This document shows, piece by piece, positions 3,321 through 32,199 of a stretch of 36,705 nt of DNA. The stretch lies in assembly GCA_048938895.1 (NCBI GenBank), contig JBHLLU010000019.1:1-36705 (forward strand), written 5' to 3'. Position numbers and translations under genes: made by a program. The DNA comes from Promethearchaeota archaeon (lineage in GTDB: Archaea > Asgardarchaeota > Lokiarchaeia > Sigyniarchaeales > SOKP01). The stretch's first letter is position 1; each line of letters begins with the position of its first letter. The notes beneath the pieces are model-generated. The model was not told the origin of the DNA. It saw only the letters and a list, made by a program, of their open reading frames with translations, and made no database searches.

Positions 3321-4754
3321 ATGGAATTAAATCCCGATTATATTAAAGATAATCTGTCTGAAATTGGGAAAAAGGATGCGCTAAATTTATTAAAAGAGCT
3401 AATTACCAGCTCAAATGACGCCTGTGTACGAAAGAAGGCATTAGAAACTTTTGGTTTCATAGATGAGGGTAATAATTTTACATTTATTGAACAATTGTTC
3501 CTTTCTGATGAAAATTCTGATATGAAGCTAATTGCAGGGATGATTCTAAAAGATAAATATATTACACATAAAAAACTAGTTCGTCTTCTGGAATATACTT
3601 TGAAGAAAGGTGATAATATTGATCAAAGAATCTTTTCAATAAATGCATTAAACGCAATGGATAATGTGAAAGCATATAAAGTCCTAACAGAATATTTAAA
3701 GGAATTTATAAAGACAAAATATAAAGAGAAATTTAAAAATTTGCACATTGATCTTGTACAAAATAGACCTATTCCAGAAAAGTTCATTATGTTATTTATT
3801 AATGTACTTTTAGGAGATTATTATGAAAGTGAATGTGGATATCTCGTGACGTTTAAGAATGGAAAGATCGTTGCATTAAGTTGTGAGGGTTCTAATTTAG
3901 GAGAAGTTTCAGATATTTTTGGATTTCGGTATCTTACTGATTTGGGGCATCTTTCAATACAGAAAAACAGTCTAAGAATAATCTCGAATCTCCAGCATTT
4001 AACCCAATTAAAGACTTTAATTTTATCCAATAATAAATTAGAGAAAATTGAAAATCTTTCGCATTTGAACAAATTAGAAGAATTAAATTTATCAGGTAAT
4101 AAGATAGAAAAGATAGAAAACTTAGAATCGTTAGTGAATTTGAAAAAACTGACACTGAGTGATAATTCAATTAGAACTATTGAAAATTTAAATGTATTAC
4201 CAAGTTTGGAAGTTTTAGATCTAAGTCATAATAAAATTTCAGAAATAAAGAATCTGAGTAAACTAGAGAGATTAACTCGATTAAATCTTTCCTCCAACAA
4301 AATTGAAACGATTGAAGGTCTTTCGCCCCTTACAAATTTAATGTGGTTGTATTTAAATGATAATCATATAATGGAGATAAATGGTCTCTCAACTTTATAT
4401 AGATTAAAAGGTCTATATCTTTCAAATAATTTTATAAACAGGATTTCTTCATTAGAAAATTTGATAAATCTAAAGAAGTTAGAGCTTTCAAATAATAAGA
4501 TTCGTAGACTAGAGGGGTTAGAAAATCTAGTAGAACTTCAAGAGTTGTACCTTGATAACAATCATATTAAAACTATCGATGGATTAGAAGGATTAAATAA
4601 TCTAATTATGCTCCATATCGGGAGAAACGAAATAGAAGAATTTAGAAAAGAATCGATTAAACATTTGAGGAATCTCAATTTTCTATTTCTTAATGAAAAT
4701 CCGTTGAATCAGAAAAGTATGTTAGAGTATCAGAAAAGAATTAGATTTCCTTAA
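3321..4754 (+). CDS. Leucine-rich repeat protein (about 12 SDS22-type 22-aa repeats) with an N-terminal HEAT-like helical region
   Basis: Repeated LxxLxLxxNxIxxIE(N/G)L units ending in LNENPL. N-terminal VRKKALETFG and LFLSDENSDMKLIAG resemble HEAT/PBS repeats. Confidence 0.9.
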   Translation: MELNPDYIKDNLSEIGKKDALNLLKELITSSNDACVRKKALETFGFIDEGNNFTFIEQLFLSDENSDMKLIAGMILKDKYITHKKLVRLLEYTLKKGDNIDQRIFSINALNAMDNVKAYKVLTEYLKEFIKTKYKEKFKNLHIDLVQNRPIPEKFIMLFINVLLGDYYESECGYLVTFKNGKIVALSCEGSNLGEVSDIFGFRYLTDLGHLSIQKNSLRIISNLQHLTQLKTLILSNNKLEKIENLSHLNKLEELNLSGNKIEKIENLESLVNLKKLTLSDNSIRTIENLNVLPSLEVLDLSHNKISEIKNLSKLERLTRLNLSSNKIETIEGLSPLTNLMWLYLNDNHIMEINGLSTLYRLKGLYLSNNFINRISSLENLINLKKLELSNNKIRRLEGLENLVELQELYLDNNHIKTIDGLEGLNNLIMLHIGRNEIEEFRKESIKHLRNLNFLFLNENPLNQKSMLEYQKRIRFP

Positions 4755-5803: not shown

Positions 5804-6106
5804 TTAATCTTTTTTTAATATTAATTTATTAATGGGAATATCTTGATATTCACCATTTGGATTTTCTCTTCGAATGGTTAAAGGTAAGATACCAGATTTT
5901 AATTCAAGCATCGCAATCTTAATGGGGTCAATCATATCTTTGGGCTTCTCGATTAAGATAGGTGCCCCGTAACTTAATTGCAAAGCTCTGGCTCCCGTTA
6001 TACGCGCTTTCTCATATCTGGTTAAAAAGATTGGTCCAATTTTCACATATTCTCTTACTTCTTTGTAAAGTTTGCGTAATTCTCGAGACTCTAAGAAACT
6101 AGACAT
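5804..6106 (-). CDS. rpoK: DNA-directed RNA polymerase subunit K (Rpo6/RPB6)
   Basis: LTRYEKARITGARALQLSYGAP and LPLTIRR signatures. Start revised to the ATG at 6106, because the longer 6217 ORF extends into the tRNA-proximal spacer without recognisable homology. Confidence 0.95.
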   Translation of the reverse strand: MSSFLESRELRKLYKEVREYVKIGPIFLTRYEKARITGARALQLSYGAPILIEKPKDMIDPIKIAMLELKSGILPLTIRRENPNGEYQDIPINKLILKKD

Positions 6107-6248
6107 GGTTAAAGTAACCAAAAAATCAGTAATTAGATTTGTAAAATGCAAGATATCATATAACTTTTTCGATAATCTAGGTATATATAATAAGCGCATA
6201 AGGAGAGAGTCATCCATATTGAATTAATTTTTCGGGGTATGTAAGAAA

Positions 6249-6353
6249 TGCGCGAGGAGGGGTTCGAACCCCCGACCGACGTGACTTACATTTTAAATCA
6301 ATGTAAATTTACACGGTGTGAGCGTGTCGTTATAACCACTAAACCACTCGCGC
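6249..6353 (-). tRNA. tRNA-Val (anticodon CAC) with a 32-nt intron (6278-6309) at position 44/45
   Basis: Minus strand: acceptor GCGCGAG/CTCGCGC plus discriminator A; D arm GTTTAGTGGTTATAAC; anticodon arm ACACG-CTCACAC-CGTGT; T arm GGGGG-TTCGAAC-CCCTC. Removing the intron gives variable loop AGGTC and a 73-nt tRNA with no encoded CCA. Confidence 0.95.
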
Positions 6354-6385
6354 ATGGTTGTATTTAAGAAGAATGGGTTATATGA

Positions 6386-6399
6386 AATAAATCTTTTCT
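6386..6399 (-). promoter_or_regulatory. Putative BRE-TATA promoter of tRNA-Val (and possibly rpoK)
   Basis: AGAAAAGA-TTTATT on the minus strand, about 33 nt upstream of the tRNA 5' end. Confidence 0.55.
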
Positions 6400-6543
6400 T
6401 GCTTAATAAGTATAAATTGTTTATTAAAATATTAGTAATTCGATTTAAGAATATGAGTACTTTTTATTGATCTTGGTAAGACTCATGGTTTATATAGTTC
6501 GTTTTACTTCTTTACTTCAATATAACAAAAAGACTAGATTCTG

Positions 6544-8856
6544 GTGATACATTTCTCAACCAATGACGATTTCATTTCTCATCCCCTTATCAAGAAAGGT
6601 TTCGTGTCAAGACGAGAATATCAAGAGGCTATTTTCATAAATTGTTTAAATCAGAATTGTTTAGTTGTAATTCCAACGGGTTTAGGAAAAACAATTATCG
6701 CTCTAATGCTTGCTGTATATAAATTAGAAGAAATGCCACAATCAAAAGTTATTTTTTTGGCGCCTACCAAACCGTTAGTCGAACAGCACCATAAATCATT
6801 CTTAGATCTTACCGTAATCCCCCCAGATTCATTACAATCGCTTACAGGAACAATTGCACCTCAGAAAAGGAAGGATATTTGGGTTAAATTAAAAGTAGCT
6901 TTTATGACACCTCAAGTCTTACAAAATGATATCATATCCAGATTATATTCCCTTGATGATGTCTCTTTAATTATTTTTGATGAATGTCATCGTGCGGTTG
7001 GTGAATATGCATATGTTTTTATCGCAAAAAAGTATTTAGAAAAATCTAGAGGGCATCAAATTTTAGCTCTTACCGCAAGTCCCGGATCAACTCAAGAAAA
7101 GATAACAGAAATTAAAGAAAACCTTTTTATTGATCATATAGAGATTAGAACTGATAAAGACCGTGATGTAAAGGATTATATTCAGAAAGTTGACAATGAA
7201 TGGATTAAAATTTCTCTTCCAGAGGAATTCCTAGAAATAAAAAAAATATTGGAAGAAAAACTCAAAGATATCTATAAATGGTTAAAAGAAAAGGAGATGC
7301 TCAATTCATTTGATGTAAACAAAATCACACGAAAGGACTTGCTGCAATTAAATACCAAAATTAATAAAAGAATTACAAATTCAAGAGATGATAAAGAGAA
7401 ATACGATCTGTTTTATGCGAAAAAGTTACAAGCGAATGCGATAAGACTTTCTCATATGTCAGAACTTCTTGAAACCCAGGGAATAAATGCCTTAAAGGAT
7501 TATCTCGATAAAAATGATGAAAAAATTAAAAGTAATACGGCAAACAAATCTCTTAAAGAATTATTTGCTGACAAGTATCTTAAAAGAGTAAAAGAGTTAA
7601 CATATCAAATTCAATCTCGAGGTGTTGTTCATCCTAAACTTGAGAAACTAAAAGAAATATTGACTACTCAATTACAGGAAAAATCAGAGTCTCGAATTTT
7701 GGTTTTTGCACACTTTCGTGACTCAGTTAATAACATAGTAAGATACTTTAAAGAAGATGATATTATTAGAACCCATAAGTTCGTAGGACAAGCACATAAA
7801 GGTTCTGATAAAGGATTAACTCAAAAAGAACAGATTAAACTTCTTGAGCAGTTCAAAGAAGGCACATATAACACGTTAATCGGGACTAGTGTTGCCGAAG
7901 AAGGGTTAGATATTGCTGAATGTGACTTAGTTGTATTTTATGATGTTGTTCCAAGTGCTATTCGTTCTATTCAGAGACGAGGTAGAACAGGACGTAAAAA
8001 AGAAGGGAATGTTCTTATTTTGATGGCACAAGGGACACGAGATGAAGGATATTATTGGGCTGAAAAAATCAGAGAGAGAAATATGAAAGAGAGTTTACAT
8101 AGAATAAAGTCTTCTCAAGAAGGATCGAAGAAAGGACAGGCAAATCTTCTAAATTTTATTGAAAAGCCCAAGAATGATACTACTTCAAATCAAAAAGTCA
8201 ATAGCGCAGAAAATGTCAAAATAGCATGCGACAATAGAGAAACGGCCTCTGCTGTTGTCAGAAATTTATCATTAATGGGAGTCAATCTGAAATTAGAGCA
8301 ATTATCTGTGGGTGATTACGTAATTTCAGAACGAGTTGGTATTGAGAGAAAAAGTTCACAGGATTTTACAGATTCAATAAAAGATGGAAGATTATTTAAC
8401 GAATTAAAAAATTTAACAGATAGTTATGAGAAACCTATTTTAATTCTAGAGGAAGATCCATTTGAAAATTCAAGTCTTAATGAAAATGCGATTTATGGGG
8501 CAATTTCTTCTATTATTCTTAACCTAGGGGTTACAATTTATAAAACAAAGGATGCAAAAGAAACTGCTATGTTTTTATATCAACTCGCTAAGAAAGAACA
8601 ATCAGATAGCAGTAGTTCTTTAAAATTAAGGTTTGACAAGGCCCCTATTGAAACTTCTCGTCTGTTAGAATATGTTATAGCAGGAATCCCTGGAGTTAAT
8701 GCCCTTCGAGCAAAGAATTTATTAAAAGAATTTGAGACCTTACAAAATATTTTTTTGGCAGATATACCAGATTTAACAAAAATTGAGAGTATTGGGAAAA
8801 AAATAGCCCAACAAATTTATAAAATTAGTAGATACAAATACAAAAAGGATCATTAG
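6544..8856 (+). CDS. hef: Hef helicase-nuclease (SF2 DEAH helicase + ERCC4/XPF nuclease + HhH; FANCM homologue)
   Basis: PTGLGKT, PTKPLVEQH, DECH, TASPG, EEGLDI, QRRGRTGR, then DNRE...GDY...ERKS nuclease motif and IPGV/IESIG HhH repeats. Confidence 0.95.
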   Translation: MIHFSTNDDFISHPLIKKGFVSRREYQEAIFINCLNQNCLVVIPTGLGKTIIALMLAVYKLEEMPQSKVIFLAPTKPLVEQHHKSFLDLTVIPPDSLQSLTGTIAPQKRKDIWVKLKVAFMTPQVLQNDIISRLYSLDDVSLIIFDECHRAVGEYAYVFIAKKYLEKSRGHQILALTASPGSTQEKITEIKENLFIDHIEIRTDKDRDVKDYIQKVDNEWIKISLPEEFLEIKKILEEKLKDIYKWLKEKEMLNSFDVNKITRKDLLQLNTKINKRITNSRDDKEKYDLFYAKKLQANAIRLSHMSELLETQGINALKDYLDKNDEKIKSNTANKSLKELFADKYLKRVKELTYQIQSRGVVHPKLEKLKEILTTQLQEKSESRILVFAHFRDSVNNIVRYFKEDDIIRTHKFVGQAHKGSDKGLTQKEQIKLLEQFKEGTYNTLIGTSVAEEGLDIAECDLVVFYDVVPSAIRSIQRRGRTGRKKEGNVLILMAQGTRDEGYYWAEKIRERNMKESLHRIKSSQEGSKKGQANLLNFIEKPKNDTTSNQKVNSAENVKIACDNRETASAVVRNLSLMGVNLKLEQLSVGDYVISERVGIERKSSQDFTDSIKDGRLFNELKNLTDSYEKPILILEEDPFENSSLNENAIYGAISSIILNLGVTIYKTKDAKETAMFLYQLAKKEQSDSSSSLKLRFDKAPIETSRLLEYVIAGIPGVNALRAKNLLKEFETLQNIFLADIPDLTKIESIGKKIAQQIYKISRYKYKKDH

Positions 8857-8981: not shown

Positions 8982-9566
8982 ATGATAAAATTTAAAGTCG
9001 TTGTTGCTGGAGCAAAAAATGTTGGAAAAACCTCGCTTCTACGGCGTTTTGCGACTGGGAAATTTGAAATATCCACTTTATCTACAATTGGGGTCGATTT
9101 TGAAACAAAAAAGGTAATCATTGACGACACAGAGATACTCCTTAATATTTGGGATTTTGCAGGAGAGAAAAAGTTCCGTTTATTATTTCCTTCTTATGTT
9201 TCAGGTGCTTCTGGAGCTTTAATGCTCTATGACGTTTCGAACAAAGATTCTTTAAACGATCTCTATGACTGGATAAATGTAATATCTTCTGTTCCCAACT
9301 CGCCCAAAACTAAGATTTTGATTGAAGCTAAAAATGATCTGAAAAGGAAAGTACAGCAAGAGGATGCAAGAGAAATCTTTGAAAAATTTAATTTTCAAGG
9401 AGAACTAATTAGCACCTCAGCAAAAACAGGGGAAAATGTTGAGGAAGCATTTAAAATGTTAGGACGTGAGATTTTAAAGAATTCATTACAAAAATGCCCA
9501 AATTGCGGAAAAATGTACCCTCTGGAACTTAAATTCTGTCAGTATTGTGGCTCGAAAACTGCATAA
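8982..9566 (+). CDS. Rab/Ras-like small GTPase with a C-terminal zinc ribbon
   Basis: G1 GAKNVGKT, G2 STIGVDF, G3 WDFAG, G4 AKND, G5 SAKTG. C-terminal CPNC-x10-CQYC. Confidence 0.93.
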   Translation: MIKFKVVVAGAKNVGKTSLLRRFATGKFEISTLSTIGVDFETKKVIIDDTEILLNIWDFAGEKKFRLLFPSYVSGASGALMLYDVSNKDSLNDLYDWINVISSVPNSPKTKILIEAKNDLKRKVQQEDAREIFEKFNFQGELISTSAKTGENVEEAFKMLGREILKNSLQKCPNCGKMYPLELKFCQYCGSKTA

Positions 9567-22434: not shown

Positions 22435-23265
22435 TTATAGAAATTTGTTAATAAAACTAATACTCTGATGTAAATCTTTTGCGGTTGATAATTCAATAAT
22501 TATTGGCCCTTGATACTCATGACTTTTCATTTTATTAAATATTTCATGAAAATTCACTTTTCCCGTTCCTAGGGGGGGGTGAGTATCTGAATCTTTACTG
22601 AAATTATCTACTATATGAACATTTTTGATTATTTTGTCGAAATAATCCCATAATTTACTAATGTTCCCATTACAAGTGTAAAAGTGGCTGGTATCATAGG
22701 TTAAATAAAGATCTTTGCGATCAATTATAGTAAAAGTGTTCTTAATGTCATTTTCATCTAACATTATATGACAATTCTTTGGCATATTTTCTAGACAAAT
22801 GCTTACATCTGAGTTTTTTGTTGAATTTAGCAATTTTTGGATTGATTTAGCTAATTGATGTTTATTATGTTCTCTAATTGAATTAATTAAAAAATTTGCT
22901 AATCCTGGGTGAATAGTTAATAGTTTAACACCAAGATCTTTACAAATCTCAACAGTTCTCAAATAGGCCTCAACTGATGCGTTAGAAATGATATCATTAT
23001 GAGTACATAAATTCACATCAATAAAAGGCCCATGTATCTGTTTTTTTAGAGAGAAAGAATTGACCAGCTTTACGAATTTATCTTTGTATGCTTCTTCAAT
23101 AACATCAGAGGGATCAAGAACTAGTTCAACAAGATCTATGTTGTTTTTTTCAGCAAAAATGAGACAATCTTCAGAGGCTTTAAGTACTAAATCAATAAGA
23201 TTCTCATAATTCTTGGAAAGCCCATATTCAATAATATGGCCTAAAGAACTTATCCCTAATTCCAT
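22435..23265 (-). CDS. Sugar phosphate isomerase/epimerase (xylose isomerase-like TIM barrel)
   Basis: IHGPF, IHPG, LENM, DTSH, HIVD, DTHPPLGTG, IIE. Confidence 0.85.
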   Translation of the reverse strand: MELGISSLGHIIEYGLSKNYENLIDLVLKASEDCLIFAEKNNIDLVELVLDPSDVIEEAYKDKFVKLVNSFSLKKQIHGPFIDVNLCTHNDIISNASVEAYLRTVEICKDLGVKLLTIHPGLANFLINSIREHNKHQLAKSIQKLLNSTKNSDVSICLENMPKNCHIMLDENDIKNTFTIIDRKDLYLTYDTSHFYTCNGNISKLWDYFDKIIKNVHIVDNFSKDSDTHPPLGTGKVNFHEIFNKMKSHEYQGPIIIELSTAKDLHQSISFINKFL

Positions 23266-23284
23266 GATTCAACTCCTTATTACA

Positions 23285-23968
23285 TTATCCCTTTTTCTCT
23301 CGCATATTACGTGGATAATTAGCAAACAAGCTTTGATACAATTTTTCAAATCTATTAAGATTTTCATTGGGGATGATTTTTGGTTCTCCTATTTGCAGAG
23401 CGCCCCAATATATTTTAGCCAATTTTTCTACTAATTCTGCAAATTTCACGGCATGGTCAATAGATTTTCCACATACGATAACTCCATGATTCGCTAATAA
23501 GGCAGCATTTTTTGTACCCAATGCATTAAGTGCTACTTGTCCAATTTCTTCTGTATGTGCTTCTCCAAAATCAGATATATCAATTGCACCGCCTAAGAAA
23601 ATGTACATTTCTTCCATTATTATTGGTATTTTTTTTCTAATTGTCGAAAACATGGAAGCGAATGTTGAATGGGTATGAATTACTGCTTGTACTTTGGGTC
23701 GGGATTTATAAATTGCGATATGCATTTTTGCTTCTGTGGAGGGTAATTTTCCAGCACTTAGAAGATTTCCTTCAAAGTCTAAATGAACTATTTCCTCTTT
23801 TTTAAGCGTAGAATATTGGTTAAATGAGGGAGTTATAAAAAATTCGTCTTTCTTTCCATTTCGAATACTAACATTGCCCTCACCTGATTCTACTAATCCT
23901 TTAGTAAAAATCGCTTTTGCGCCTTCGACTACGTCAAGCCGAAGCTTCTCTTCCTTTGTCAATGACAT
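23285..23968 (-). CDS. Class II aldolase/adducin family (FucA-like)
   Basis: GNVS, ITPS, PSTE..MH, HTHS, LLANHG. Confidence 0.9.
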   Translation of the reverse strand: MSLTKEEKLRLDVVEGAKAIFTKGLVESGEGNVSIRNGKKDEFFITPSFNQYSTLKKEEIVHLDFEGNLLSAGKLPSTEAKMHIAIYKSRPKVQAVIHTHSTFASMFSTIRKKIPIIMEEMYIFLGGAIDISDFGEAHTEEIGQVALNALGTKNAALLANHGVIVCGKSIDHAVKFAELVEKLAKIYWGALQIGEPKIIPNENLNRFEKLYQSLFANYPRNMREKKG

Positions 23969-24132
23969 AATTTAAATAATTAAGAATGAGTTAAAAAATT
24001 ATTTCGAATTATAAAAAGAAGGAAATAAGTGAGATATTTGAAAATTCAAAATACTCTAGTCTTATATATAAAATCTAAAAGTATGAATTATGTTATGTAA
24101 AAATTTATTCTTCCAATCAAACCATTCATATA

Positions 24133-25224
24133 ATGACCCGAATTATACTCCATTGTGATTTAGACTGTTTTTTTGCAGCGGTTGAAATAAGGGATAATCC
24201 TCAATACAAAAAAAAGCCAGTTATTGTGGGAGCTGATCCAAAAAATGGAAGAGGAAGGGGAGTCGTATCCACGTGTTCATATGAAGCAAGAAAATTTGGT
24301 CTTCATTCTGGAATGCCAATTTCTCAGGCATTTCTAAGGTGTCCTCATGGGATTTATTTAAGACCTAATATAGAAAAGTATCATATTGCTTCTAAATCAG
24401 TAATGAATATATTAAAGAATTACTCAAATGATTTTCAAAAAATGGGAAGTGATGAAGCATATCTGGATCTTACAGATATATGCAATAATTATCAGGAAGC
24501 AAAGGACTATGGCACTAAAATTCAAAAGGAAGTTGTAGAGAAAGTAGGTTTGACAATTTCTATTGGAATAGCACCCACAAAATCTCTTGCTAAAATTGCC
24601 TCTGACTGTAATAAACCAAATGGGATAACTCTCTTGGAACCACATAATTTTAAGGGTTTATTAAAAGATATGGATATTACTCGTGTACCAGGGATTGGGA
24701 AAAAAACAAAGGGGTATTTTTATCAGAAAGGGATACGAAAGATAGGCGATATATTTAACCTTACTCTTGCAAAGATGATTTCTTTAGTAGGTGAACATGG
24801 AAAATGGATTTGGAAAGTAGTGAATGGATTTGATAACCGAAAGGTCAAAGAATTCCATGAAGAAAGGAAGTCTATCAGTGCTGAAAGAACTTTTTTCGAA
24901 GACACGGATGATTTTAATTCAATATTAGCAAAATTGGAAGATATTAATGAAAAAATCCACAATTCACTTATGAAAAATCATATCACATACAAAACAATTT
25001 CATTAAAAATAAGGTTTGAAGGTTATCGGACATACACTCGTGCGAAAACCTTACCATTTCATATACAAGATAAACAACGGGTAATTGAAGTGGTCTTAGA
25101 TTTATTGAAAGAATTTACAAGAAGTATGAAAAAAGTAAGACTTGTAGGGATTAAATTATCTAATTTAGAGAAAAATATGAAAATTCGGCAGACTAAAATT
25201 TTACATTATGCCTATGTTACATAA
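24133..25224 (+). CDS. dinB: DNA polymerase IV (Y family)
   Basis: DLDCFFA, SYEAR, SDEAYLD, AKIASD..KPNG, little-finger RLVGI. Confidence 0.96.
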   Translation: MTRIILHCDLDCFFAAVEIRDNPQYKKKPVIVGADPKNGRGRGVVSTCSYEARKFGLHSGMPISQAFLRCPHGIYLRPNIEKYHIASKSVMNILKNYSNDFQKMGSDEAYLDLTDICNNYQEAKDYGTKIQKEVVEKVGLTISIGIAPTKSLAKIASDCNKPNGITLLEPHNFKGLLKDMDITRVPGIGKKTKGYFYQKGIRKIGDIFNLTLAKMISLVGEHGKWIWKVVNGFDNRKVKEFHEERKSISAERTFFEDTDDFNSILAKLEDINEKIHNSLMKNHITYKTISLKIRFEGYRTYTRAKTLPFHIQDKQRVIEVVLDLLKEFTRSMKKVRLVGIKLSNLEKNMKIRQTKILHYAYVT

Positions 25225-26149
25225 AAAAATCCGGTAAAATCTCTTTTAATTTATGTATTATCTCCTCATGAAGTACATTATTTGAAGCAATTATTCCCGG
25301 TTTAGTCCATTTACATTTTTCTCTTAAAAATTCCAGGGAAATTCCTTCTAAATCTGATACTGTTCCTCCTGCTTCTCTCACAATCAAATCTCCTGGTAAA
25401 AAATCCCAAGAAGATGAATGATCTGGATCTAGTGGCTTAATGTATAGATCAGCACTTCCATCCGCAATCATCGCAAATTTAGCCATGCTATCAATTTGTA
25501 TAAACTTGGTTATACCAGTTTGCTTAGCAAATTGCATAACCCATGGCTGATCATAATGCAAAGAGTGACATAATTTAATATCTTCTATCTCTTCTGTTTG
25601 ACTTACTTTAAGTGTTATGGCATCTCCATAGTTGTATGAAACTTGAGCACCTTGGCCTTCCTCAGCTGAAAAAACTGCAATTGAATTTCCTTTATAATTT
25701 GGGACTGCGATCGCACATACTTTTGGGACGGAATTCTCCATAAATCCCACTCCTACAGCATATGATAATCCTTTTTGAAAACCAATGGTCCCATCAATTG
25801 GATCAACAGTCCATTGACGTTGCGATGGATATCCCCGATATTTAATTAATTTTTTTATATCGTGTAATTCATTTAGATCCAGTTCTTGAAAACACTGCAG
25901 AACAACATTCTGTGAGGTTTTATCAATAAATTTAATATCCTCTTCTTCTGCAATTATCTCATCATCGACGAAATGGTTTTTTAAGCTAGCTATGATATAT
26001 ATTTGAGAAGCAAAATCAGCTAAAGTAACTGGTGAGTCATCATCCTTAGAGAAGGATTTATATTCCTTATTTCTAAACCATTCTGTGATTTCAGAGGCCT
26101 TTTTTACTATTTTTATAGCTAAGTTTAATTCTTTATTGTATTTCGACAT
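25217..26149 (-). CDS. Inositol monophosphatase superfamily, HAL2/SAL1-like 3'(2'),5'-bisphosphate nucleotidase
   Basis: SPVTLADFASQ, AEE, DPIDGT.GF, IDSMAKF, WD. Confidence 0.85.
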   Translation of the reverse strand: MSKYNKELNLAIKIVKKASEITEWFRNKEYKSFSKDDDSPVTLADFASQIYIIASLKNHFVDDEIIAEEEDIKFIDKTSQNVVLQCFQELDLNELHDIKKLIKYRGYPSQRQWTVDPIDGTIGFQKGLSYAVGVGFMENSVPKVCAIAVPNYKGNSIAVFSAEEGQGAQVSYNYGDAITLKVSQTEEIEDIKLCHSLHYDQPWVMQFAKQTGITKFIQIDSMAKFAMIADGSADLYIKPLDPDHSSSWDFLPGDLIVREAGGTVSDLEGISLEFLREKCKWTKPGIIASNNVLHEEIIHKLKEILPDFFM

Positions 26150-26169
26150 TGTTAATTAAAAAATAGCGG

Positions 26170-28251
26170 TTACATTAGTATTGCTTTTATTTCAAATAGA
26201 TAATTTTCTAATGAAGATGACATATTACTAGTTAGAGCAATTTGTTTAAATCTTTTTAATTCTGATTCGAAATTATATTCACCTAATAACCATATTAATT
26301 TATGAAGTTCAATTTTTTTCCTAAAATTAGCATCAATTTTATAATATTTGGAGTAAGCATTATAAAAAGCATCAGAAAAAGAGGGAATATTTAAGGGTTT
26401 TAAAATAAAATAATCAATTTTTATAAAATCTTGGGCTCTACTTCCTACACACCAATTATCAAAGTCAACTAATCCATTTAAATTAATAACTCCTTGTTCT
26501 TCTTTTACAATAACGTTTTGGCTATGAAAATCATTATGTAGCAATACAAATTCATCTTCATCTTCAATTAATGCTTCAGTATCTCTATAATATTCCCTTA
26601 TTTCATTACTTAAATCAATTTTATTCTTTTTTATTTCTTGTAATTCGAGTTCTAGTTTATTATTGAAATATTCTGAATATTTTTCTCTTTTTTTTTTCCC
26701 TAGATTGGAAATTGTCTTATAAAAGGAGTCAAACCTAATATTATGTAGATTTCCTAAATGAACTCCCAATTTTTCAAATAAATTTATCACTTTTTTGGTG
26801 TTTAAGTTTTTTCCTTCATTGATATAGGTATTTATAAGTTCAAATAATGGTTTTCCCCGGATATAATCTTGTACTGAAAAAATATAGGGAATAAGTGTTT
26901 TACGTTCATCATAATAGATTAAATTACTTACTGGTATAATAGGGGGATTGTCTTTCTGGAAAATATATGATCCTGTTTTTGCCGCAAGAATTTCCTTTAC
27001 TTTTTCCCTTAACTGTGAATCTTTGGGTGTCAATGTATTATCTAATAGAGGAAATAGTAATTTTTCTTTAACCAGATTTTCAAATTGAAAAATTTTACTA
27101 GTTCGAAATCTAAATACTAATTTGCTATTTTCAAATTTTACCTTATATATTGTATTGATATCTGCCCCATAAGGTCCTGTGATTTTTATTACTTTTCCTT
27201 GTTGAACTAAAACATCAATTTTTGAAAATGTCTCTATAATATCCCGAAATTGATACAGATCTTTAGTACCAATAAAATATAATTTATAGATTTGTTTGTT
27301 ATTAATTAAGGAATTGACAGTGGCTTCAATTCTTTCTTTACTTATTGTTTCGATTTCAGTTTGTAGTGCAGAAATGATAGAATTAATTTCTCCGTTTGAC
27401 GAGGAAATTAAATCTCGATATAGATAAAGAAATGCGTATGATAAACCACGTTTTTCTTGATCTTGTCCTGTCTTATTATCATAAATTTTTGTTCTAATAT
27501 CATTAATTTGATCTTGAAGTTGCAGAAGTTCAAGGAGATTATCTTCCAGAGCGTAGTAATATAATTTTGAAGACATATTAACTAAATTGCTGATATTAGA
27601 CACAATTCCACTATATTTTCTCAGGTTTAAAGGGATTAATTGAAAAAAATTTTGAGAATTTTCTTCTAATCCGCAAAATACAGAAAAATTCTCATTTAAT
27701 AACTCTATATAAGATTTGCAAACTTTAATATTATAAAAGGAATCATTTAAACCCTTTAGATTAGGAAAAGCTAGTAATCGATTAAGGAAAGAAGGTTCAA
27801 TCTCATTTCTAGCGCATAAAAGAGGATTATTATACAAATATATTTTATTTCTTGGATTAATTGAACTTAAAATGTTTTCAAAATGAGAATAAATTGCATC
27901 TGATGAAATTTTCTCAGAGAAGGGAGGAGATATCATATAATTTAGATCTTCATATTTTTTACTAAAAGTTTCAATGTGGTTAATAACATCATCCGCAGAG
28001 TTATCATGAAATTCAGTTAGTATAGGAATTTTATTCTGAGTAATTTCCAATACTAAATCAATAAACTTAGATTTTTGTTCAATATTAGATAAAAAGCCTC
28101 TATTATCCCCCATATTCCCAAAAAGCAAGATAGCATTTGCATCATTTGTAAGAATATGACGAAATAGAAGTGAATTTAAATTTTCTACAATATCACCATT
28201 TTTGTTGATGAATGTAAGAGCATCACAAATTACTCCATTGATTTGCGACAA
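26170..28251 (-). CDS. Fusion: degenerate DHDPS/NAL-family TIM barrel + APH/choline-kinase-like phosphotransferase
   Basis: N-terminal LFGNMGD, SPPF, YLYNNP, PNLKGLNDS. C-terminal LHNDFHSQN and LVDFD. TTG start with upstream GAAGTGA. Confidence 0.8.
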   Translation of the reverse strand: MSQINGVICDALTFINKNGDIVENLNSLLFRHILTNDANAILLFGNMGDNRGFLSNIEQKSKFIDLVLEITQNKIPILTEFHDNSADDVINHIETFSKKYEDLNYMISPPFSEKISSDAIYSHFENILSSINPRNKIYLYNNPLLCARNEIEPSFLNRLLAFPNLKGLNDSFYNIKVCKSYIELLNENFSVFCGLEENSQNFFQLIPLNLRKYSGIVSNISNLVNMSSKLYYYALEDNLLELLQLQDQINDIRTKIYDNKTGQDQEKRGLSYAFLYLYRDLISSSNGEINSIISALQTEIETISKERIEATVNSLINNKQIYKLYFIGTKDLYQFRDIIETFSKIDVLVQQGKVIKITGPYGADINTIYKVKFENSKLVFRFRTSKIFQFENLVKEKLLFPLLDNTLTPKDSQLREKVKEILAAKTGSYIFQKDNPPIIPVSNLIYYDERKTLIPYIFSVQDYIRGKPLFELINTYINEGKNLNTKKVINLFEKLGVHLGNLHNIRFDSFYKTISNLGKKKREKYSEYFNNKLELELQEIKKNKIDLSNEIREYYRDTEALIEDEDEFVLLHNDFHSQNVIVKEEQGVINLNGLVDFDNWCVGSRAQDFIKIDYFILKPLNIPSFSDAFYNAYSKYYKIDANFRKKIELHKLIWLLGEYNFESELKRFKQIALTSNMSSSLENYLFEIKAILM

Positions 28252-28531
28252 ATTAGATTCACTTCTTTAAATGGTAAAATGATTGAATTTCTATAGTATT
28301 ATATTTAGTATTATATGTATATCAGTTTTTAAGAGTTTTTAACCAATAATATTTTCTTTTTTATACCTAAATTTTAATTGCTCTTTTATTTATAATTTCT
28401 TATTCAATATAAATAGATGTGAAATTCCGTTAAAGGAACGAGTTATTAATTCCCGTAAAATTGATGCTAATAATAGATCACTTGTTTCTCTTATTAGTTT
28501 TCCTTCTATAGGCTAATTTTTACAAAAATAC

Positions 28532-30205
28532 CTAAATTTTTTTCGATTCTTTGAATATTTCAAATATATCCATTTCATAATCTATAGTATCTTCTGGTAA
28601 TAAATTAGGATCTTTGATAAGTTTGGCTAGATAATAAATTTTTGCCCCCCTCTCAAGGTATTGTAAAACTGTATAAGCTCCCTTTAAGTGACTGCCACAA
28701 CATAAATTACCATGATTAGAGAGAAGTACTGCATTTCTCTCAGCTAAATCTTTAATAACATGCTCTGCTAATTCTTCTGAGCCTGCTTCTCCATATATAG
28801 CGCATGATACTTCACCACCGATATATGGGACTAGCTCTTCCATAATTGGTGGGAGGGAGAGATTTAAAGTACTGAGGATAGTAGAATATATACTGTGAGC
28901 ATGGATAATTGCATTAATATCATCTCTTGCCTTGTATACACTTAAATGCATATGTTTCTCTACTGAAGGATTTCTTTCTCCTTCTATAACTTTACCTTCC
29001 ATATCAATTATAAGAATATCCTCTGGTTTCATTTCAGTGTAGTTTACATTACTTGGTGTAATTAGAACAAATTCATTTTCGTCGTCTCTTACTCTTACAC
29101 TTACATTCCCTGCAGAACCAATTACATGCTTCTGCTTTAATAGAATTTTGCATAATTCAACTATATCTTTCTTCATTTCATTACTTTGTGATTTGGAAAT
29201 TAGATTTTTATTTGAATACACTTCGGGATTCATAATATTAGAAGGGATCTTATTGTTTAGCCATAATTTAATGTCATCCAAAATCATTTTAGATTGGCGT
29301 TCAATTATCTCAAATGTGTTTCCTCCAATATGGGGTGAAACAATGGAATTGGTAAATTCAAGGAATTCATTTTCCTCATCAATGGGTTCTAACGGGAATA
29401 CATCCAATGCTGCTCCAGCAATTTTTTTTTCTTTTAATGCTTTTTGTAGTGCTTCATAATCAACAATACTCCCCTTAGCGGTATTTATTAAATATGCTGT
29501 TTTTTTCATTGAATCAATACGAGTTTCATTTAGTAGATCATCGTTTTCATCTGTTGCACTAGCATGAATGGTTATAAAATCGGAATTTCTGACAAGGAAA
29601 TCAATATCGACTTTTTCACCATACTCATCAGTAATGTCTATAGCAACATAGGGATCATAAATTAGGAATTTAACACCAAAGGGTCTTAATCTCTTTGCTA
29701 CCCTAGAACCAATTTGGCCAAAACCTATTATACCCACCGTTTTTCCTCTTAATTCATTACCTTTAAATTCTTCATAATAATCAACCCAGTTTTCAAAATC
29801 TATAATCTCAAAATCTTTAGAATGAAGGATTCTATCGACTATATGAATGTTACGAGCAAGCATCAAAATATAGCAGACAGTCAAATCTGCAACAGCATCA
29901 ACATTTCTCAGTGGTGTATTAAGTACAGGAATTCCTTTTTCTGTTGCAGCTTTTAAATTAACATTATATGGATCCCCTCTACAAGAAATGAGAAGTTTTA
30001 AGTCAGTTAAATCATAGAATTCTTTTTTCTTTACATCATCAGTTTCAGTAATAAAGATGTCTATACCTTCTAACTTTTCTGCTAATTCTTTAGCATCAAA
30101 ATAAATTTCTCGAGTTTGAATCCATGGTTCATACTCAATTTCTATTAAATTTTTTAGTTCTTCAAGAACCTCTGGACTTATACTTGCGGTTACTAGAGCT
30201 TTCAT
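28532..30205 (-). CDS. Fusion: D-2-hydroxyacid dehydrogenase-like + class II aldolase
   Basis: GFGQIG, YDPY, INTAKG, LDVFPLEP, SPHIGG, then GNVS, PSVE..MH, HAHS, LSNHG. Confidence 0.9.
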   Translation of the reverse strand: MKALVTASISPEVLEELKNLIEIEYEPWIQTREIYFDAKELAEKLEGIDIFITETDDVKKKEFYDLTDLKLLISCRGDPYNVNLKAATEKGIPVLNTPLRNVDAVADLTVCYILMLARNIHIVDRILHSKDFEIIDFENWVDYYEEFKGNELRGKTVGIIGFGQIGSRVAKRLRPFGVKFLIYDPYVAIDITDEYGEKVDIDFLVRNSDFITIHASATDENDDLLNETRIDSMKKTAYLINTAKGSIVDYEALQKALKEKKIAGAALDVFPLEPIDEENEFLEFTNSIVSPHIGGNTFEIIERQSKMILDDIKLWLNNKIPSNIMNPEVYSNKNLISKSQSNEMKKDIVELCKILLKQKHVIGSAGNVSVRVRDDENEFVLITPSNVNYTEMKPEDILIIDMEGKVIEGERNPSVEKHMHLSVYKARDDINAIIHAHSIYSTILSTLNLSLPPIMEELVPYIGGEVSCAIYGEAGSEELAEHVIKDLAERNAVLLSNHGNLCCGSHLKGAYTVLQYLERGAKIYYLAKLIKDPNLLPEDTIDYEMDIFEIFKESKKI

Positions 30206-30249
30206 ATATACTACTCCTTTAAAAATCTTAAAAAATAAATGAATTATAG

Positions 30250-30600
30250 TTAAAAAAGTAAGCTCTTCAATTTAAGTAAATTTCGGATTTTCCCCTCAAC
30301 TATTTTTATTTGTCCCGTACTATATGCTTTTACAGCACCAATATCTTTGTTGAATAAATTAATTAAAACCTTTTCAGAACTAAATTCAATCTTAACGGGA
30401 GATTCTTCATTTCCAGAATCATCTTCAATGCTAATGCCCTGGTCTCCCTTAACAAAGATAAAAAATGAAGATTCAGTATCTAAAAAAGTAACTTTGATTG
30501 GTTCATTGTAGTTGGCTAATTTTCTTCTGACTTTTTCATTATTGTTGTATCGATCTTCAATTTCCTTTAAACAACTCTGAATATCTTCGAATTTTGACAA
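30250..30600 (-). CDS. SCP2 sterol/lipid-binding domain protein
   Basis: C-terminal LFNKDIGAVKAYSTGQIKIVEGKIRNLLKL matches the SCP2 A-x3-G-x-IK-x-G-x4-LKL pattern. TTG start with upstream GGGGA. Confidence 0.78.
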   Translation of the reverse strand: MSKFEDIQSCLKEIEDRYNNNEKVRRKLANYNEPIKVTFLDTESSFFIFVKGDQGISIEDDSGNEESPVKIEFSSEKVLINLFNKDIGAVKAYSTGQIKIVEGKIRNLLKLKSLLF

Positions 30601-30693
30601 TATTTATTATCCCCATCTTATAATGACTAATCTTAATAATTGATTGAATTATTGATTAAATTTTATCTTTTTGAAAAAATTCAAAGGTTAGAT

Positions 30694-32199
30694 TTAAAGA
30701 TGATCAAGTTTATTTTTTAAATGCTTCCATTGTGTAAAAATACTCTTATATTCAGCAGAAATAGAGGGATCAATATCAAAAGTTTCAAATTTCATAAGTT
30801 CATTACAGATTTTCTTATGATCAGGGTAATGATTTAATCCAATCAACGTATTAATTGTAGTACCAATAAAAGCTGAATCTCTGGTATAAGGTACTTTTAG
30901 TTGTGTGTTTAGAATGTTTGCTAGAATTTGACAAAATTCTTTGGATTTAGACATTCCTCCAGCACAGAATGTTGTTAGTGTTGATTTTGAAAATTTTTGT
31001 AGGGCAATATAGTTTTCGAGAATTCCGAAGCAGATACCTTCAATTACACTTCGCGCGAAGTTTTCTAACTTAGGTAATTCTTCCTCAATCATACTGGGAG
31101 GTTGAAACACAAAAACACCTCTTTTAATAGATGTTTGATCCTTTACTGCCATGAGTTCTGGCCCTAGATAAGTAAAAGTTGAACCTGCTCCGGGTGTAAC
31201 CCTTGACAAGAATTTATTAATAATTTCGTTTATATCCCCCTGAATATAGGGAAAGAATGTATCTTTGAACCAGTCATAAGCTCTTCCTGTACCCCCGGCA
31301 TTAGCCTCAATTAACCAATTGCCTTTTACTGCATGATATGCTGTCCAAAAATTAAGATTTGGATCAATGATTGGCTCATTTACCACTAAATTTACAGGAG
31401 CAGTAGTGCCTAAGCTAATCCCGATTTGATTTGGCTCGATCGCTCCCATACCAATTAAATTTGCTTGTGTGTCTCCACATCCTTTTATAATAGGAATCTT
31501 TTCTTTTGTTAGTCCAAATTCTTGCATTAATTCTGATCTCAAATTTCCTATTATTGCCCCGGAATCAATGATCTCTGGAAAAATTTCTGAATTAAGATTA
31601 AATCTATCTATTATTTCAATACTCCAATTTTTTTTCTTAATATCAAAAAGTTGTGATTCTCCTATTGATGTGTAGTCAGTATAACTTAATCCAGTTAACT
31701 TATAGTCGATCCAATCATCCAGCATTAGAATTTTATTGATTTTTTCAAATTTATCCTTTCGTTCTTCCTGAAACCATAATAAACGAGCTAATGTAAACAT
31801 TAAGGAAGGGCTATGAGCGGTTATATGAAATAGTTCTTCCTCAGAGAACTCATCTTCGATGAGATATGCTGAATCAATCCCCCGTATATCAGTGTTAGGG
31901 CCCCCATAAATCTCATTTCCTTTACTATCTAAAAAAATGGTGGCTACTCTTTGACCACATGAAGATATGCCGATAATGCTATTGGATTTATCTTTTTTTA
32001 GTACTTCTTTTATTCCATCCTTAATTTTTTTCCAAATACTATTCATATCAAGACGTTTAGCAAATCCATCGACATCTTCATTAATGATCTCATACTCTTG
32101 TGCTGATACTGACTTTAGTTCTAATTTATCAGAGACAAGACCAACTTTAACTTTTCTAGAAGATACATCAATCGAGAGAATATTTTTGGAATTTTCCAT
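30694..32199 (-). CDS. FGGY family carbohydrate kinase
   Basis: IDVSS..VK, GQR, DIR, LLWF, GDTQA, SLGT, IEGI, AGGMSKS. Confidence 0.9.
   Translation of the reverse strand: MENSKNILSIDVSSRKVKVGLVSDKLELKSVSAQEYEIINEDVDGFAKRLDMNSIWKKIKDGIKEVLKKDKSNSIIGISSCGQRVATIFLDSKGNEIYGGPNTDIRGIDSAYLIEDEFSEEELFHITAHSPSLMFTLARLLWFQEERKDKFEKINKILMLDDWIDYKLTGLSYTDYTSIGESQLFDIKKKNWSIEIIDRFNLNSEIFPEIIDSGAIIGNLRSELMQEFGLTKEKIPIIKGCGDTQANLIGMGAIEPNQIGISLGTTAPVNLVVNEPIIDPNLNFWTAYHAVKGNWLIEANAGGTGRAYDWFKDTFFPYIQGDINEIINKFLSRVTPGAGSTFTYLGPELMAVKDQTSIKRGVFVFQPPSMIEEELPKLENFARSVIEGICFGILENYIALQKFSKSTLTTFCAGGMSKSKEFCQILANILNTQLKVPYTRDSAFIGTTINTLIGLNHYPDHKKICNELMKFETFDIDPSISAEYKSIFTQWKHLKNKLDHL

Follow-up and report, generated by a model that had tools for sequence, protein, structure and literature searches.

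Gene content of the locus

We analyzed a stretch of 36,705 nucleotides from a Promethearchaeota archaeon, hereafter the window (contig C130:1-36705 of a 4.65-Mb, 174-contig genome; G+C ~31%), in which seven minus-strand genes share a region with an oppositely oriented dinB. A first-pass annotation had read the seven as one sugar- or polyol-phosphate pathway with a lipid-carrier component. An open reading frame (ORF) listing, combined with Pfam and NCBIfam searches of the window proteins (32 ORFs scanned), confirmed the seven minus-strand ORFs and dinB together with their named domains. They are given below with the unit, of three that we distinguish, to which each is assigned (DH, dehydrogenase; aa, amino acids).

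30694-32199, minus strand: FGGY kinase, 501 aa (Pfam FGGY_N, E 2.6e-45; FGGY_C, E 6.5e-15); unit 1
30250-30600, minus strand: SCP2-fold protein, 116 aa (Pfam SCP2, a marginal 21.5 bits against a cut-off of 21.3); unit 1
28532-30205, minus strand: DH::aldolase fusion, 557 aa (Pfam 2-Hacid_dh and Aldolase_II in one frame); unit 1
29201-30205, minus strand: DH domain of the fusion, about residues 1-335
28532-29191, minus strand: aldolase domain of the fusion, about residues 339-557
28252-28531: AT-rich spacer of 280 bp, separating unit 1 from unit 2
26170-28251, minus strand: DHDPS/APH fusion, 693 aa (Pfam DHDPS, residues 5-257; APH, residues 437-612); unit 2
25217-26149, minus strand: HAL2/SAL1-type member of the inositol monophosphatase family, 310 aa (Pfam Inositol_P); probably unit 2
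24133-25224, plus strand: DinB (DNA polymerase IV; PRK02406, 341.5 bits, cut-off 256); outside all units
23285-23968, minus strand: stand-alone class II aldolase-family protein, 227 aa (Pfam Aldolase_II); unit 3
22435-23265, minus strand: xylose-isomerase-like TIM barrel, 276 aa (Pfam AP_endonuc_2); probably unit 3

Both fusions are genuine, each forming a single open frame in every relative found (692-701 aa for DHDPS/APH, 555-569 aa for DH::aldolase). The reported lack of a sugar transporter also held, with zero transporter families among the 32 ORFs. No catabolic-looking protein of the window reaches the cut-off of an NCBIfam equivalog model, so that these proteins are not plain FucK, FucA, XylB, SerA, DapA or CysQ; for the kinase and the aldolase this agrees with the first-pass reading. 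All homologues with a named organism come from Asgard archaea (Promethearchaeota, Loki-, Thor-, Hod-, Hermod-, Odin- and Heimdallarchaeota).

Gene order in the window's family

We scanned for the DHDPS/APH fusion in one genome per species, which gave 50 loci, and mapped the window proteins onto them by tblastn. The results show a kept order, SRP54-trmY-pyrC-AMMECR1-[unit 1]-DHDPS/APH-IMP-dinB-aldolase-TIM-nikR-nadC-hydrolase, where IMP is the inositol monophosphatase family member. Given that housekeeping genes share this order, synteny is no argument for a seven-gene pathway: the linkage expected in relatives does exist as gene order, but it cannot serve as a sign of shared function. The position of dinB, the same in 43 of the 50 loci, likewise marks conserved synteny.

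Against this constant background the parts vary. Among the 43 loci that span the interval between AMMECR1 and DHDPS/APH, unit 1 is complete in 26, represented by a diverged, inverted paralogous set in one, absent from 16 and partial in none. Seven of the 43 loci have no phosphatase gene between DHDPS/APH and dinB, and five of 35 lack the TIM barrel. In a sample of the phylum (201 Asgard genomes), DHDPS/APH was found in 21, all of the window's GTDB family: it occurs in 20 of the 40 other family genomes and in none of the 160 genomes from 26 other families. The two fusions vary independently, 41 family genomes being divided into 14 with both, 7 with DHDPS/APH alone, 10 with DH::aldolase alone and 10 with neither. 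The stand-alone aldolase, found in 54 of 61 family genomes, is close to ubiquitous there; the phosphatase and the TIM barrel were each found in 43 of the 61. As kin are not independent, such co-occurrence counts describe rather than test.

That all seven genes are steps of one sugar- or polyol-phosphate pathway appears highly improbable in the light of these comparisons. In the window the genes lie in close proximity and point the same way, their order recurs in many relatives, the kinase/isomerase/aldolase logic is familiar, and at two loci in other genomes (L085 and L086) the phosphatase and the second aldolase again have a paralogous module nearby. However, the kept order runs on to SRP54, pyrC, dinB and nadC, and the 16 loci devoid of unit 1 keep the remaining genes. 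DHDPS/APH was not found in the 160 genomes of other families, where unit 1 exists, and the split operons described below come without TIM barrel, phosphatase or APH kinase. Moreover, the DHDPS-like domain has no catalytic lysine, and the run itself is split by the opposite dinB and the 280-bp spacer. What stands of the proposed pathway is the kinase, SCP2 and DH::aldolase; the four other minus-strand genes drop out of it, as their proximity reflects family-wide macro-synteny and their phyletic patterns differ. We give about an even chance to the reading that the seven genes are three units kept together by family-wide gene order, with unit 1 a self-contained catabolic module.

The intergenic regions also differ between relatives. 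Eighteen of the 26 complete loci have roughly 1 kb between FGGY and SCP2, the window only 93 bp (30601-30693). Many relatives encode a divergently transcribed regulator in this interval. In locus L014 it holds an oppositely oriented FilR1/ArsR-like helix-turn-helix regulator (5927-6715, minus strand), which the window does without; the regulator is also part of the paralogous set mentioned above, in locus L023 (6708-7490, plus strand). This inverted set (L023:4009-9068) sits at the same chromosomal spot, is 29-48% identical to the window's module, and consists of a 578-aa DH::aldolase, a 279-aa SCP2 with an N-terminal extension, the regulator and a 522-aa FGGY protein; its long type of SCP2 is also found in other families (L066, L068, L084-L086). 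The spacer at 28252-28531 probably provides a separate promoter for the DHDPS/APH gene. Most relatives have in its place an oppositely oriented gene whose product (about 200-245 aa) matches no Pfam family (for example L014:9086-9694 and L019:9082-9816, both minus strand); in this genome the gene is located on contig C85 (23746-24471).

Unit 1 across Asgard archaea

From the 201 genomes we extracted 99 loci with DH or DH::aldolase. Matches to DH::aldolase are full-length in the window's family and in two others, while elsewhere they fall into two genes about 1.5 kb apart. In one family (f7; for example G087:C1, G093:C34 and G103:C12) many DH matches contain one stop, mostly TAG and sometimes TAA or TGA, near the end of the match, which is probably read-through past the true stop into the next gene.

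We then considered 34 module loci from 22 genera, all outside the syntenic block. The typical operon is SCP2-DH-FGGY-aldolase, in which DH and aldolase are separate genes flanking FGGY. FGGY is found in 33 of the 34 loci and an aldolase gene or domain in 29, four of the five others ending at a contig edge beside the module. SCP2 occurs in 24, as a short form in 19 and in 5 as a form of about 270 aa, whose N-terminal extension (~165 aa) had no usable match in the ESM Atlas. Sixteen loci, from 11 genera, also encode an aldehyde:ferredoxin oxidoreductase (AOR). Less frequent neighbors are an aldo-keto reductase (AKR; 6 loci), an AEC-type carrier (4 loci), ABC-2 components (3-5 loci) and, in a single locus, a FucO-like iron alcohol dehydrogenase (Fe-ADH). 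No isomerase or mutarotase was present in any of the 34 loci. In the window's own genome, unit 1 is the sole orthologue of the split operon and its FGGY protein the only orthologue of the split-operon kinase; about nine AOR paralogues are encoded there, none of them linked to it.

SCP2 belongs to the module as a constant component, in line with the first-pass reading. A profile built from 12 sequences matched 327 places, on 150 of which the adjacency counts rest: SCP2 lies within 500 bp of DH in at least 37 of 37 fused and at least 32 of 62 split loci, that is in at least 69 of 99, and within 6 kb in at least 82 of 99, the 13 additional loci being split ones.

Some split operons adjoin redox genes. 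Five of them, from several genera (L059, L061, L065, L080 and L081), lie next to sulfhydrogenase-like genes (Fer4_22, DHODB Fe-S/NAD-binding, Oxidored_q6 and NiFe large subunit), and two others (L062 and L069) next to Fer4_20/Pyr_redox_2 oxidoreductases. Such neighbors could drain off NADH and reduced ferredoxin that the module would produce.

Four-domain relatives outside the Asgard clusters

A phmmer search of the window's DH::aldolase against 1.84 billion representatives retrieved two Asgard fused clusters as best matches. The next matches include 17 proteins of 911-1485 aa, each with two matched stretches. We ran Pfam on 12 of these fusions, and all six of at least 1281 aa read FGGY, 2-Hacid_dh, SCP2 (in one or two copies) and Aldolase_II, in this order, the shorter ones showing partial domain combinations. 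Judged by sequence similarity, these giant fusions of about 1280-1480 residues are the nearest relatives of unit 1 outside the Asgard clusters. Because the module is all or none in the family's loci, and because its four parts also occur in one polypeptide, we conclude that kinase, SCP2 and DH::aldolase form one genuine functional unit, gained or lost whole.

A metagenome scan yielded at least 534 relatives of the giant fusion, and 80 loci were kept (median G+C 66%). Naive ORFs were clustered across these loci and 23 cluster representatives annotated by Pfam. The largest clusters of neighbors are cytochrome P450 (11 loci), acyl-CoA ligase (8), AOR (7) and epimerase/3-beta-HSD-like proteins (7), followed by TetR (6) and by thiolase-like proteins, class III aminotransferase, short-chain dehydrogenase/reductase (SDR) and GntR (5 each). 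No sugar-isomerase family was found among the 23 annotated clusters. The neighbors thus lean, weakly, to lipid-type over sugar-type substrates.

Properties of the unit 1 proteins

The kinase has both halves of the actin fold (FGGY_N and FGGY_C). In NCBIfam it scores highest with XylB (199.7 bits, cut-off 380) and LsrK (191.9, cut-off 528), and lower with FucK (TIGR02628, 121.8, cut-off 470.9) and rhamnulokinase (TIGR02627, 78.3, cut-off 528); the XylB, LsrK and GlpK models all outscore FucK and RhaB. Its best match in the PDB is LsrK (5ya0, E 9e-35). XylB, LsrK and GlpK phosphorylate a CH2OH beside a CHOH, not beside a keto group.

The marginal Pfam score of the window's SCP2 protein is secured by its homologues, which reach up to 53.8 bits, and by a structural model (predicted local distance difference test, pLDDT, 86) that matches SCP2 domains. 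The top Foldseek matches, with template modeling (TM) scores of 0.6-0.68 and 11-22% identity to the solved structures, are the SCP2 domains of alkylsulfatases, AF1534, yeast and mammalian SCP2, and UbiJ, so that the SCP2 fold is confirmed at the level of the model. Ligand-bound entries among these matches suggest, by analogy, that the fold accommodates a hydrophobic chain. In the alkylsulfatases SdsA1 and PisA1, in MFE-2 and in UbiJ, the same fold stands beside or within enzymes for hydrophobic substrates; unlike them, the window's SCP2 is coupled to enzymes of sugar-phosphate type. The subfamily has 260 database members (E <= 1e-10), and the named ones among 120 of these 260 are all Asgard.

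The DH domain is closest in the PDB to phosphoglycerate dehydrogenase (PGDH; 1wwk) and GyaR (2dbq), and its top NCBIfam models are phosphoglycerate dehydrogenase (208-238 bits) and glyoxylate reductase (205-237 bits), both under their cut-offs; the PdxB model gives 103.8 bits. It has both Pfam domains of D-isomer-specific 2-hydroxyacid dehydrogenases and, aligned to PGDH and GyaR, keeps the NAD site (GFGQIG) and the PHIGG and LEP motifs, and the catalytic His292 and Glu273 are invariant. The catalytic, carboxylate-binding Arg of the N-x-[AS]-R-G motif, otherwise nearly universal in such enzymes, is replaced by Lys in the window (NTAKGS, residues 241-246; 29471-29488, minus strand). This replacement is found in 19 of 19 sequences of the window's DH clade. 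All three other fused forms have Arg, as do six of seven split forms; the exception, L060, has neither Arg nor Lys.

The aldolase domain was aligned to its best PDB match, 6btd, and to 4c24; 6btd is labeled fuculose phosphate aldolase in the PDB, and we take it to be the 5-deoxyribulose-1-phosphate aldolase DrdA. All 34 sequences of the module and of the stand-alone aldolase retain the GNxS, PSxE, HxH and NHG motifs, and with them the residues that bind phosphate and zinc and the counterpart of Glu73. Since these residues are kept, the domain looks competent and should still make and protonate the enediolate of dihydroxyacetone phosphate (DHAP). In the same 34 sequences, Glu occupies the position of Tyr113 of FucA, a residue contributed by the neighboring subunit. 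Equivalog models are missed by a wide margin (TIGR01086, 124.8 bits against 400; PRK06833, 194 against 264), and the OtnC model NF043034 gives 116.7 and 101.8 bits against a cut-off of 250. Only two class II aldolase genes are found in this genome, and the fused domain and the stand-alone copy are 33% identical.

A proposed reaction sequence and its alternatives

Based on these properties, we propose that unit 1 probably releases a three-carbon sugar phosphate from the polyol terminus of a hydrophobic molecule. The kinase would phosphorylate the terminal CH2OH of a substrate ending in -CHOH-CHOH-CH2OH, the PGDH-like domain would use NAD+ to oxidize the neighboring CHOH, giving an end of ketose-1-phosphate type (-CHOH-CO-CH2OP), and the fused zinc aldolase would split this end into DHAP and an aldehyde. 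In relatives, the aldehyde could be converted to an acid by the neighboring AOR, or to an alcohol by AKR or Fe-ADH; the window's genome would draw on one of its unlinked AORs. SCP2 would hold the substrate or the aldehyde. Both SCP2 and the neighbors of the giant fusions point to a hydrophobic character of the rest of the substrate, and a hydrophobic or alkyl-polyol substrate, as first put forward for the whole run, is still the best reading of unit 1. The order, kinase first and dehydrogenase second, is chosen because the kinase resembles XylB, LsrK and GlpK, the DH resembles PGDH, an isomerase is lacking and the giant fusions are arranged kinase-DH-aldolase. PGDH oxidizes a CHOH that adjoins CH2OP.

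There is a precedent for this order in the erythritol route of Brucella, where the FGGY kinase EryA phosphorylates the polyol and the dehydrogenase EryB then forms the ketose phosphate. As in the proposed route, a polyol is phosphorylated first by an FGGY kinase and the polyol phosphate oxidized afterward. In contrast to unit 1, EryB is a flavoprotein, the product is isomerized rather than cleaved by an aldolase, and the polyol is small and soluble.

A series of points weighs against the proposed sequence. The reaction order and the polyol substrate are read from family resemblance, and we know of no enzyme of the D-2-hydroxyacid dehydrogenase family that oxidizes a polyol phosphate. The Arg-to-Lys replacement could mean that the DH has altered or weak activity. 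As all NCBIfam scores are under their cut-offs, specificity is not readable from the scores. AOR is absent from the window and from 18 of the 34 module loci, and in 17 of the 99 DH loci none of the 150 SCP2 places considered (of 327) lies within 6 kb. Co-occurrence counts overstate the case, as kin are not independent. Each lipid-type neighbor of the giant fusions occurs in at most 11 of 80 loci, by naive ORF calling in high-GC DNA.

The main competing explanation is catabolism of a small sugar. A ketose-1-phosphate of fuculose, rhamnulose, ribulose or xylulose type, made by the kinase, would be cleaved to DHAP and lactaldehyde or glycolaldehyde, AOR would oxidize the aldehyde to a 2-hydroxy acid, the DH would turn this into pyruvate or glyoxylate, and SCP2 would have no lipid role. 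In known routes of this kind (FucK-FucA-FucO/AldA and RhaB-RhaD), an FGGY kinase and a zinc class II aldolase yield DHAP and an aldehyde, which a neighboring enzyme oxidizes or reduces, and in the RhaEW protein of rhamnose catabolism an aldolase is fused to a dehydrogenase. This precedent removes the novelty that had been attributed to such a fusion as such. Unit 1 shares with the fucose and rhamnose routes the FGGY kinase, the zinc class II aldolase and a neighbor that handles aldehydes. Under this explanation each enzyme keeps its textbook chemistry; it would accommodate the glyoxylate-reductase-like scores of the DH, the PDB labels of the best solved aldolase relatives (fuculose phosphate aldolases) and the AOR, AKR and FucO-like Fe-ADH neighbors, and one FucI-like protein is encoded elsewhere in the genome. 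However, this FucI-like gene is not linked to the module, the genome yielded no RhaA, and a search there for linkage of the aldolases to FucI-like, RhaA or MtnA genes gave none. FucK and RhaB are the weaker kinase scores, the 34 module loci have no isomerase or mutarotase, and the fused DH, of the D-2-hydroxyacid family rather than the SDR, aldehyde dehydrogenase or Fe-ADH type of the fucose and rhamnose routes, would not act on the direct product of the aldolase. Glu at the Tyr113 position is a further difference from those routes. The constant SCP2, fused between DH and aldolase in the giant proteins, and the P450, acyl-CoA ligase and thiolase neighbors would stay unexplained. We consider this explanation unlikely.

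A second alternative starts from a tetronate or another sugar acid. The earlier tetronate pathway is LtnD-OtnI-OtnK-OtnC, and the known kinases of such pathways belong to another family, DUF1537, which counts against this alternative. According to PMC12994016, a bypass, Ltn3D-3OtnK-3OtnC, does not need the aldose-ketose isomerase, and the logic by which a dehydrogenase, a kinase and a class II aldolase-fold enzyme lead to DHAP is established for L-threonate routes. As in unit 1, these three activities turn a -CHOH-CHOH-CH2OH end into DHAP. In the corresponding variant for unit 1, kinase and DH would form a 3-oxo-acid phosphate, which an OtnC-type decarboxylase would convert to DHAP and CO2. 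The DH would then act on a true 2-hydroxy-acid phosphate, like PdxB and SerA, the OtnC model gives 102-125 bits, and the TIM barrel is a weak match to OtnI (30.9 bits). However, the OtnC scores are below those of FucA-type models as well as below their own cut-off, the TIM barrel is not in the module elsewhere, and a decarboxylase yields no aldehyde, yet AOR, AKR and ADH neighbors are frequent. In the tetronate routes the leaving group is CO2 from a sugar acid, the dehydrogenase is an SDR, and neither SCP2 nor an aldehyde-handling neighbor takes part, so that SCP2 is again unexplained. This variant seems quite unlikely.

A third alternative is the disposal of a small reactive by-product, either a diketone like AI-2/DPD (autoinducer-2 and its precursor) or a 5-deoxy or methylthio sugar from S-adenosylmethionine (SAM) chemistry, in a variant of the DHAP shunt. 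The split-operon kinases have LsrK as top model (275-350 bits), the best solved aldolase relative is 6btd, taken above to be DrdA, and the genome encodes an MtnA orthologue (372 bits, over the cut-off), all of which fit such a role. Against it, the LsrK scores are under the cut-off of 528, no MtnA- or DrdI-type isomerase, LsrG or LsrF is linked to the module, and MtnA lies on contig C95 among unrelated genes. The DHAP shunt has no place for a dehydrogenase, and SCP2 and the lipid-type neighbors would be left without explanation. We regard by-product disposal as very doubtful.

Returning to a greasy substrate with a polyol end, a more specific version is that Asgard unit 1 and the carriers of giant fusions clip DHAP from the polyol chain of amphiphilic membrane lipids, with bacteriohopanepolyols as the model case; this we see as a long shot. 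With bacteriohopanetetrol, phosphorylation would take place at C35, oxidation at C34 and cleavage between C32 and C33, and the resulting C32 aldehyde would be converted to C32 hopanoic acid by AOR or to C32 hopanol by a reductase. In an anoxic carbonate setting, the 17-beta,21-beta C32 acid is reported to be the most abundant hopanoic acid (PMC11884234).

Units 2 and 3

The DHDPS/APH protein consists of a DHDPS-like barrel (about residues 1-290) and a kinase of APH/FN3K type (about residues 400-693). The TIM barrel is homologous to solved aldolases (E 1e-12), and in this respect the label "DHDPS-like" stands as a Pfam domain. In alignments to PDB structures (the KD(P)G aldolase 4uxd and DapA), however, the Schiff-base Lys is replaced by Asn169, the Thr of GTTGE by Met and the Tyr of PPY by Phe, and the Schiff-base position across 48 members is Asn in 36, Ile in 11 and Lys in one. 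Given that this lysine is gone, the domain does not provide an aldolase step. The kinase part has HNDFHSQN (HxDxxxxN) and VDFD (DFD) in the window, each kept in 41 of 48 members; the catalytic Asp is lost in 7 of 48. Its relation to solved APH/FN3K proteins is distant (phmmer E 0.004; Foldseek matches of the C-lobe to FN3K and APH(2''), E ~5e-5), the modeled N-lobe is poor (mean pLDDT 62.9), and in the ESM Atlas only generic APH clusters were retrieved. No MtnK model was among its NCBIfam matches at E <= 1e-5. The protein is like class I aldolases of the DHDPS/NAL type in its barrel and like FN3K/APH(2'') in kinase C-lobe and motifs, and unlike the DHDPS/NAL aldolases in having lost the Schiff-base Lys and helper residues; the fusion was seen in one Asgard family only.

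Of the family genomes shared by the two samples, all 20 that have DHDPS/APH also encode the phosphatase, compared with 6 of 16 that lack the fusion. The phosphatase matches the HAL2 model TIGR01330 over its full length (172.3 bits, cut-off 267) and CysQ with 101 bits. Its best PDB match is a putative 3'(2'),5'-bisphosphate nucleotidase of Entamoeba (4hxv, E 1.5e-41), with yeast HAL2 and plant SAL1 also matched; it is closer to the eukaryote-type phosphatases of 3'-phosphoadenosine 5'-phosphate (PAP) than to bacterial CysQ. Based on these motifs and matches, we propose that unit 2 may pair a HAL2-type phosphatase with a family-restricted kinase of small molecules, whose barrel is non-catalytic and perhaps binds a ligand.

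In unit 3, the TIM barrel often, though not always, adjoins the stand-alone aldolase. It reaches no NCBIfam cut-off (best, CbiR, 64.5 of 105 bits; OtnI NF043033, cut-off 325), and its best PDB match is the uncharacterized MJ1311 of M. jannaschii (3wqo, E 7e-17), weaker matches being CbiR and endonuclease IV, not sugar isomerases. As MtnA is encoded elsewhere in the genome, a DHAP-shunt-like role of the stand-alone aldolase is possible.

Other genes in and near the window

The other genes of the window are housekeeping or typical of Asgard archaea: SRP54, pyrC, nadC, nikR, and three for which coordinates are given here.

3321-4754, plus strand: leucine-rich repeat (LRR)/HEAT-repeat protein
6544-8856, plus strand: Hef-type helicase-nuclease
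8982-9566, plus strand: Ras-family small GTPase

A sigma-70 scan returned 59 promoter-like sites and 2 terminators where 62.7 and 4.4 were expected; its model is wrong for archaea and its outcome uninformative. About 9 kb beyond the end of the window, the contig encodes a second FGGY kinase (512 aa; region C130:44907-49759), 30% identical to the LsrK-like operon kinases, near a major facilitator superfamily (MFS) transporter and two proteins without Pfam match.

Implications

The object of interest is smaller than had been claimed, three genes instead of seven, yet more widely conserved. No description of the unit 1 module was found in the literature searched. In the accessible parts of three related sources, a preprint on microcompartments of Hodarchaeales has a class II aldolase in a different context (PMC12747264), one SCP-2 homologue of a cultured Lokiarchaeon is mentioned and not studied (PMC12139934), and for YoaD/YoaC of B. 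subtilis a role in cysteine degradation is only guessed (PMC2885750).

In this lineage, co-directional neighbors with suggestive domains cannot be read as a pathway, as long-range synteny is too well kept. The unit 2 fusion of a dead barrel with a kinase is a neat case of a kinase that has acquired a pseudoenzyme domain. If the hopanoid version were true, it would give abundant sedimentary hopanoid products an enzymatic, anaerobic origin, and Asgard archaea could feed on bacterial membranes. More generally, if unit 1 works as proposed, it would be a conserved, undescribed and oxygen-free way to obtain a glycolytic three-carbon unit from a greasy molecule by acting on its polar end, which would assign a job to an uncharacterized Asgard SCP2 protein and provide testable enzymes for the turnover of lipid polyols in sediments.

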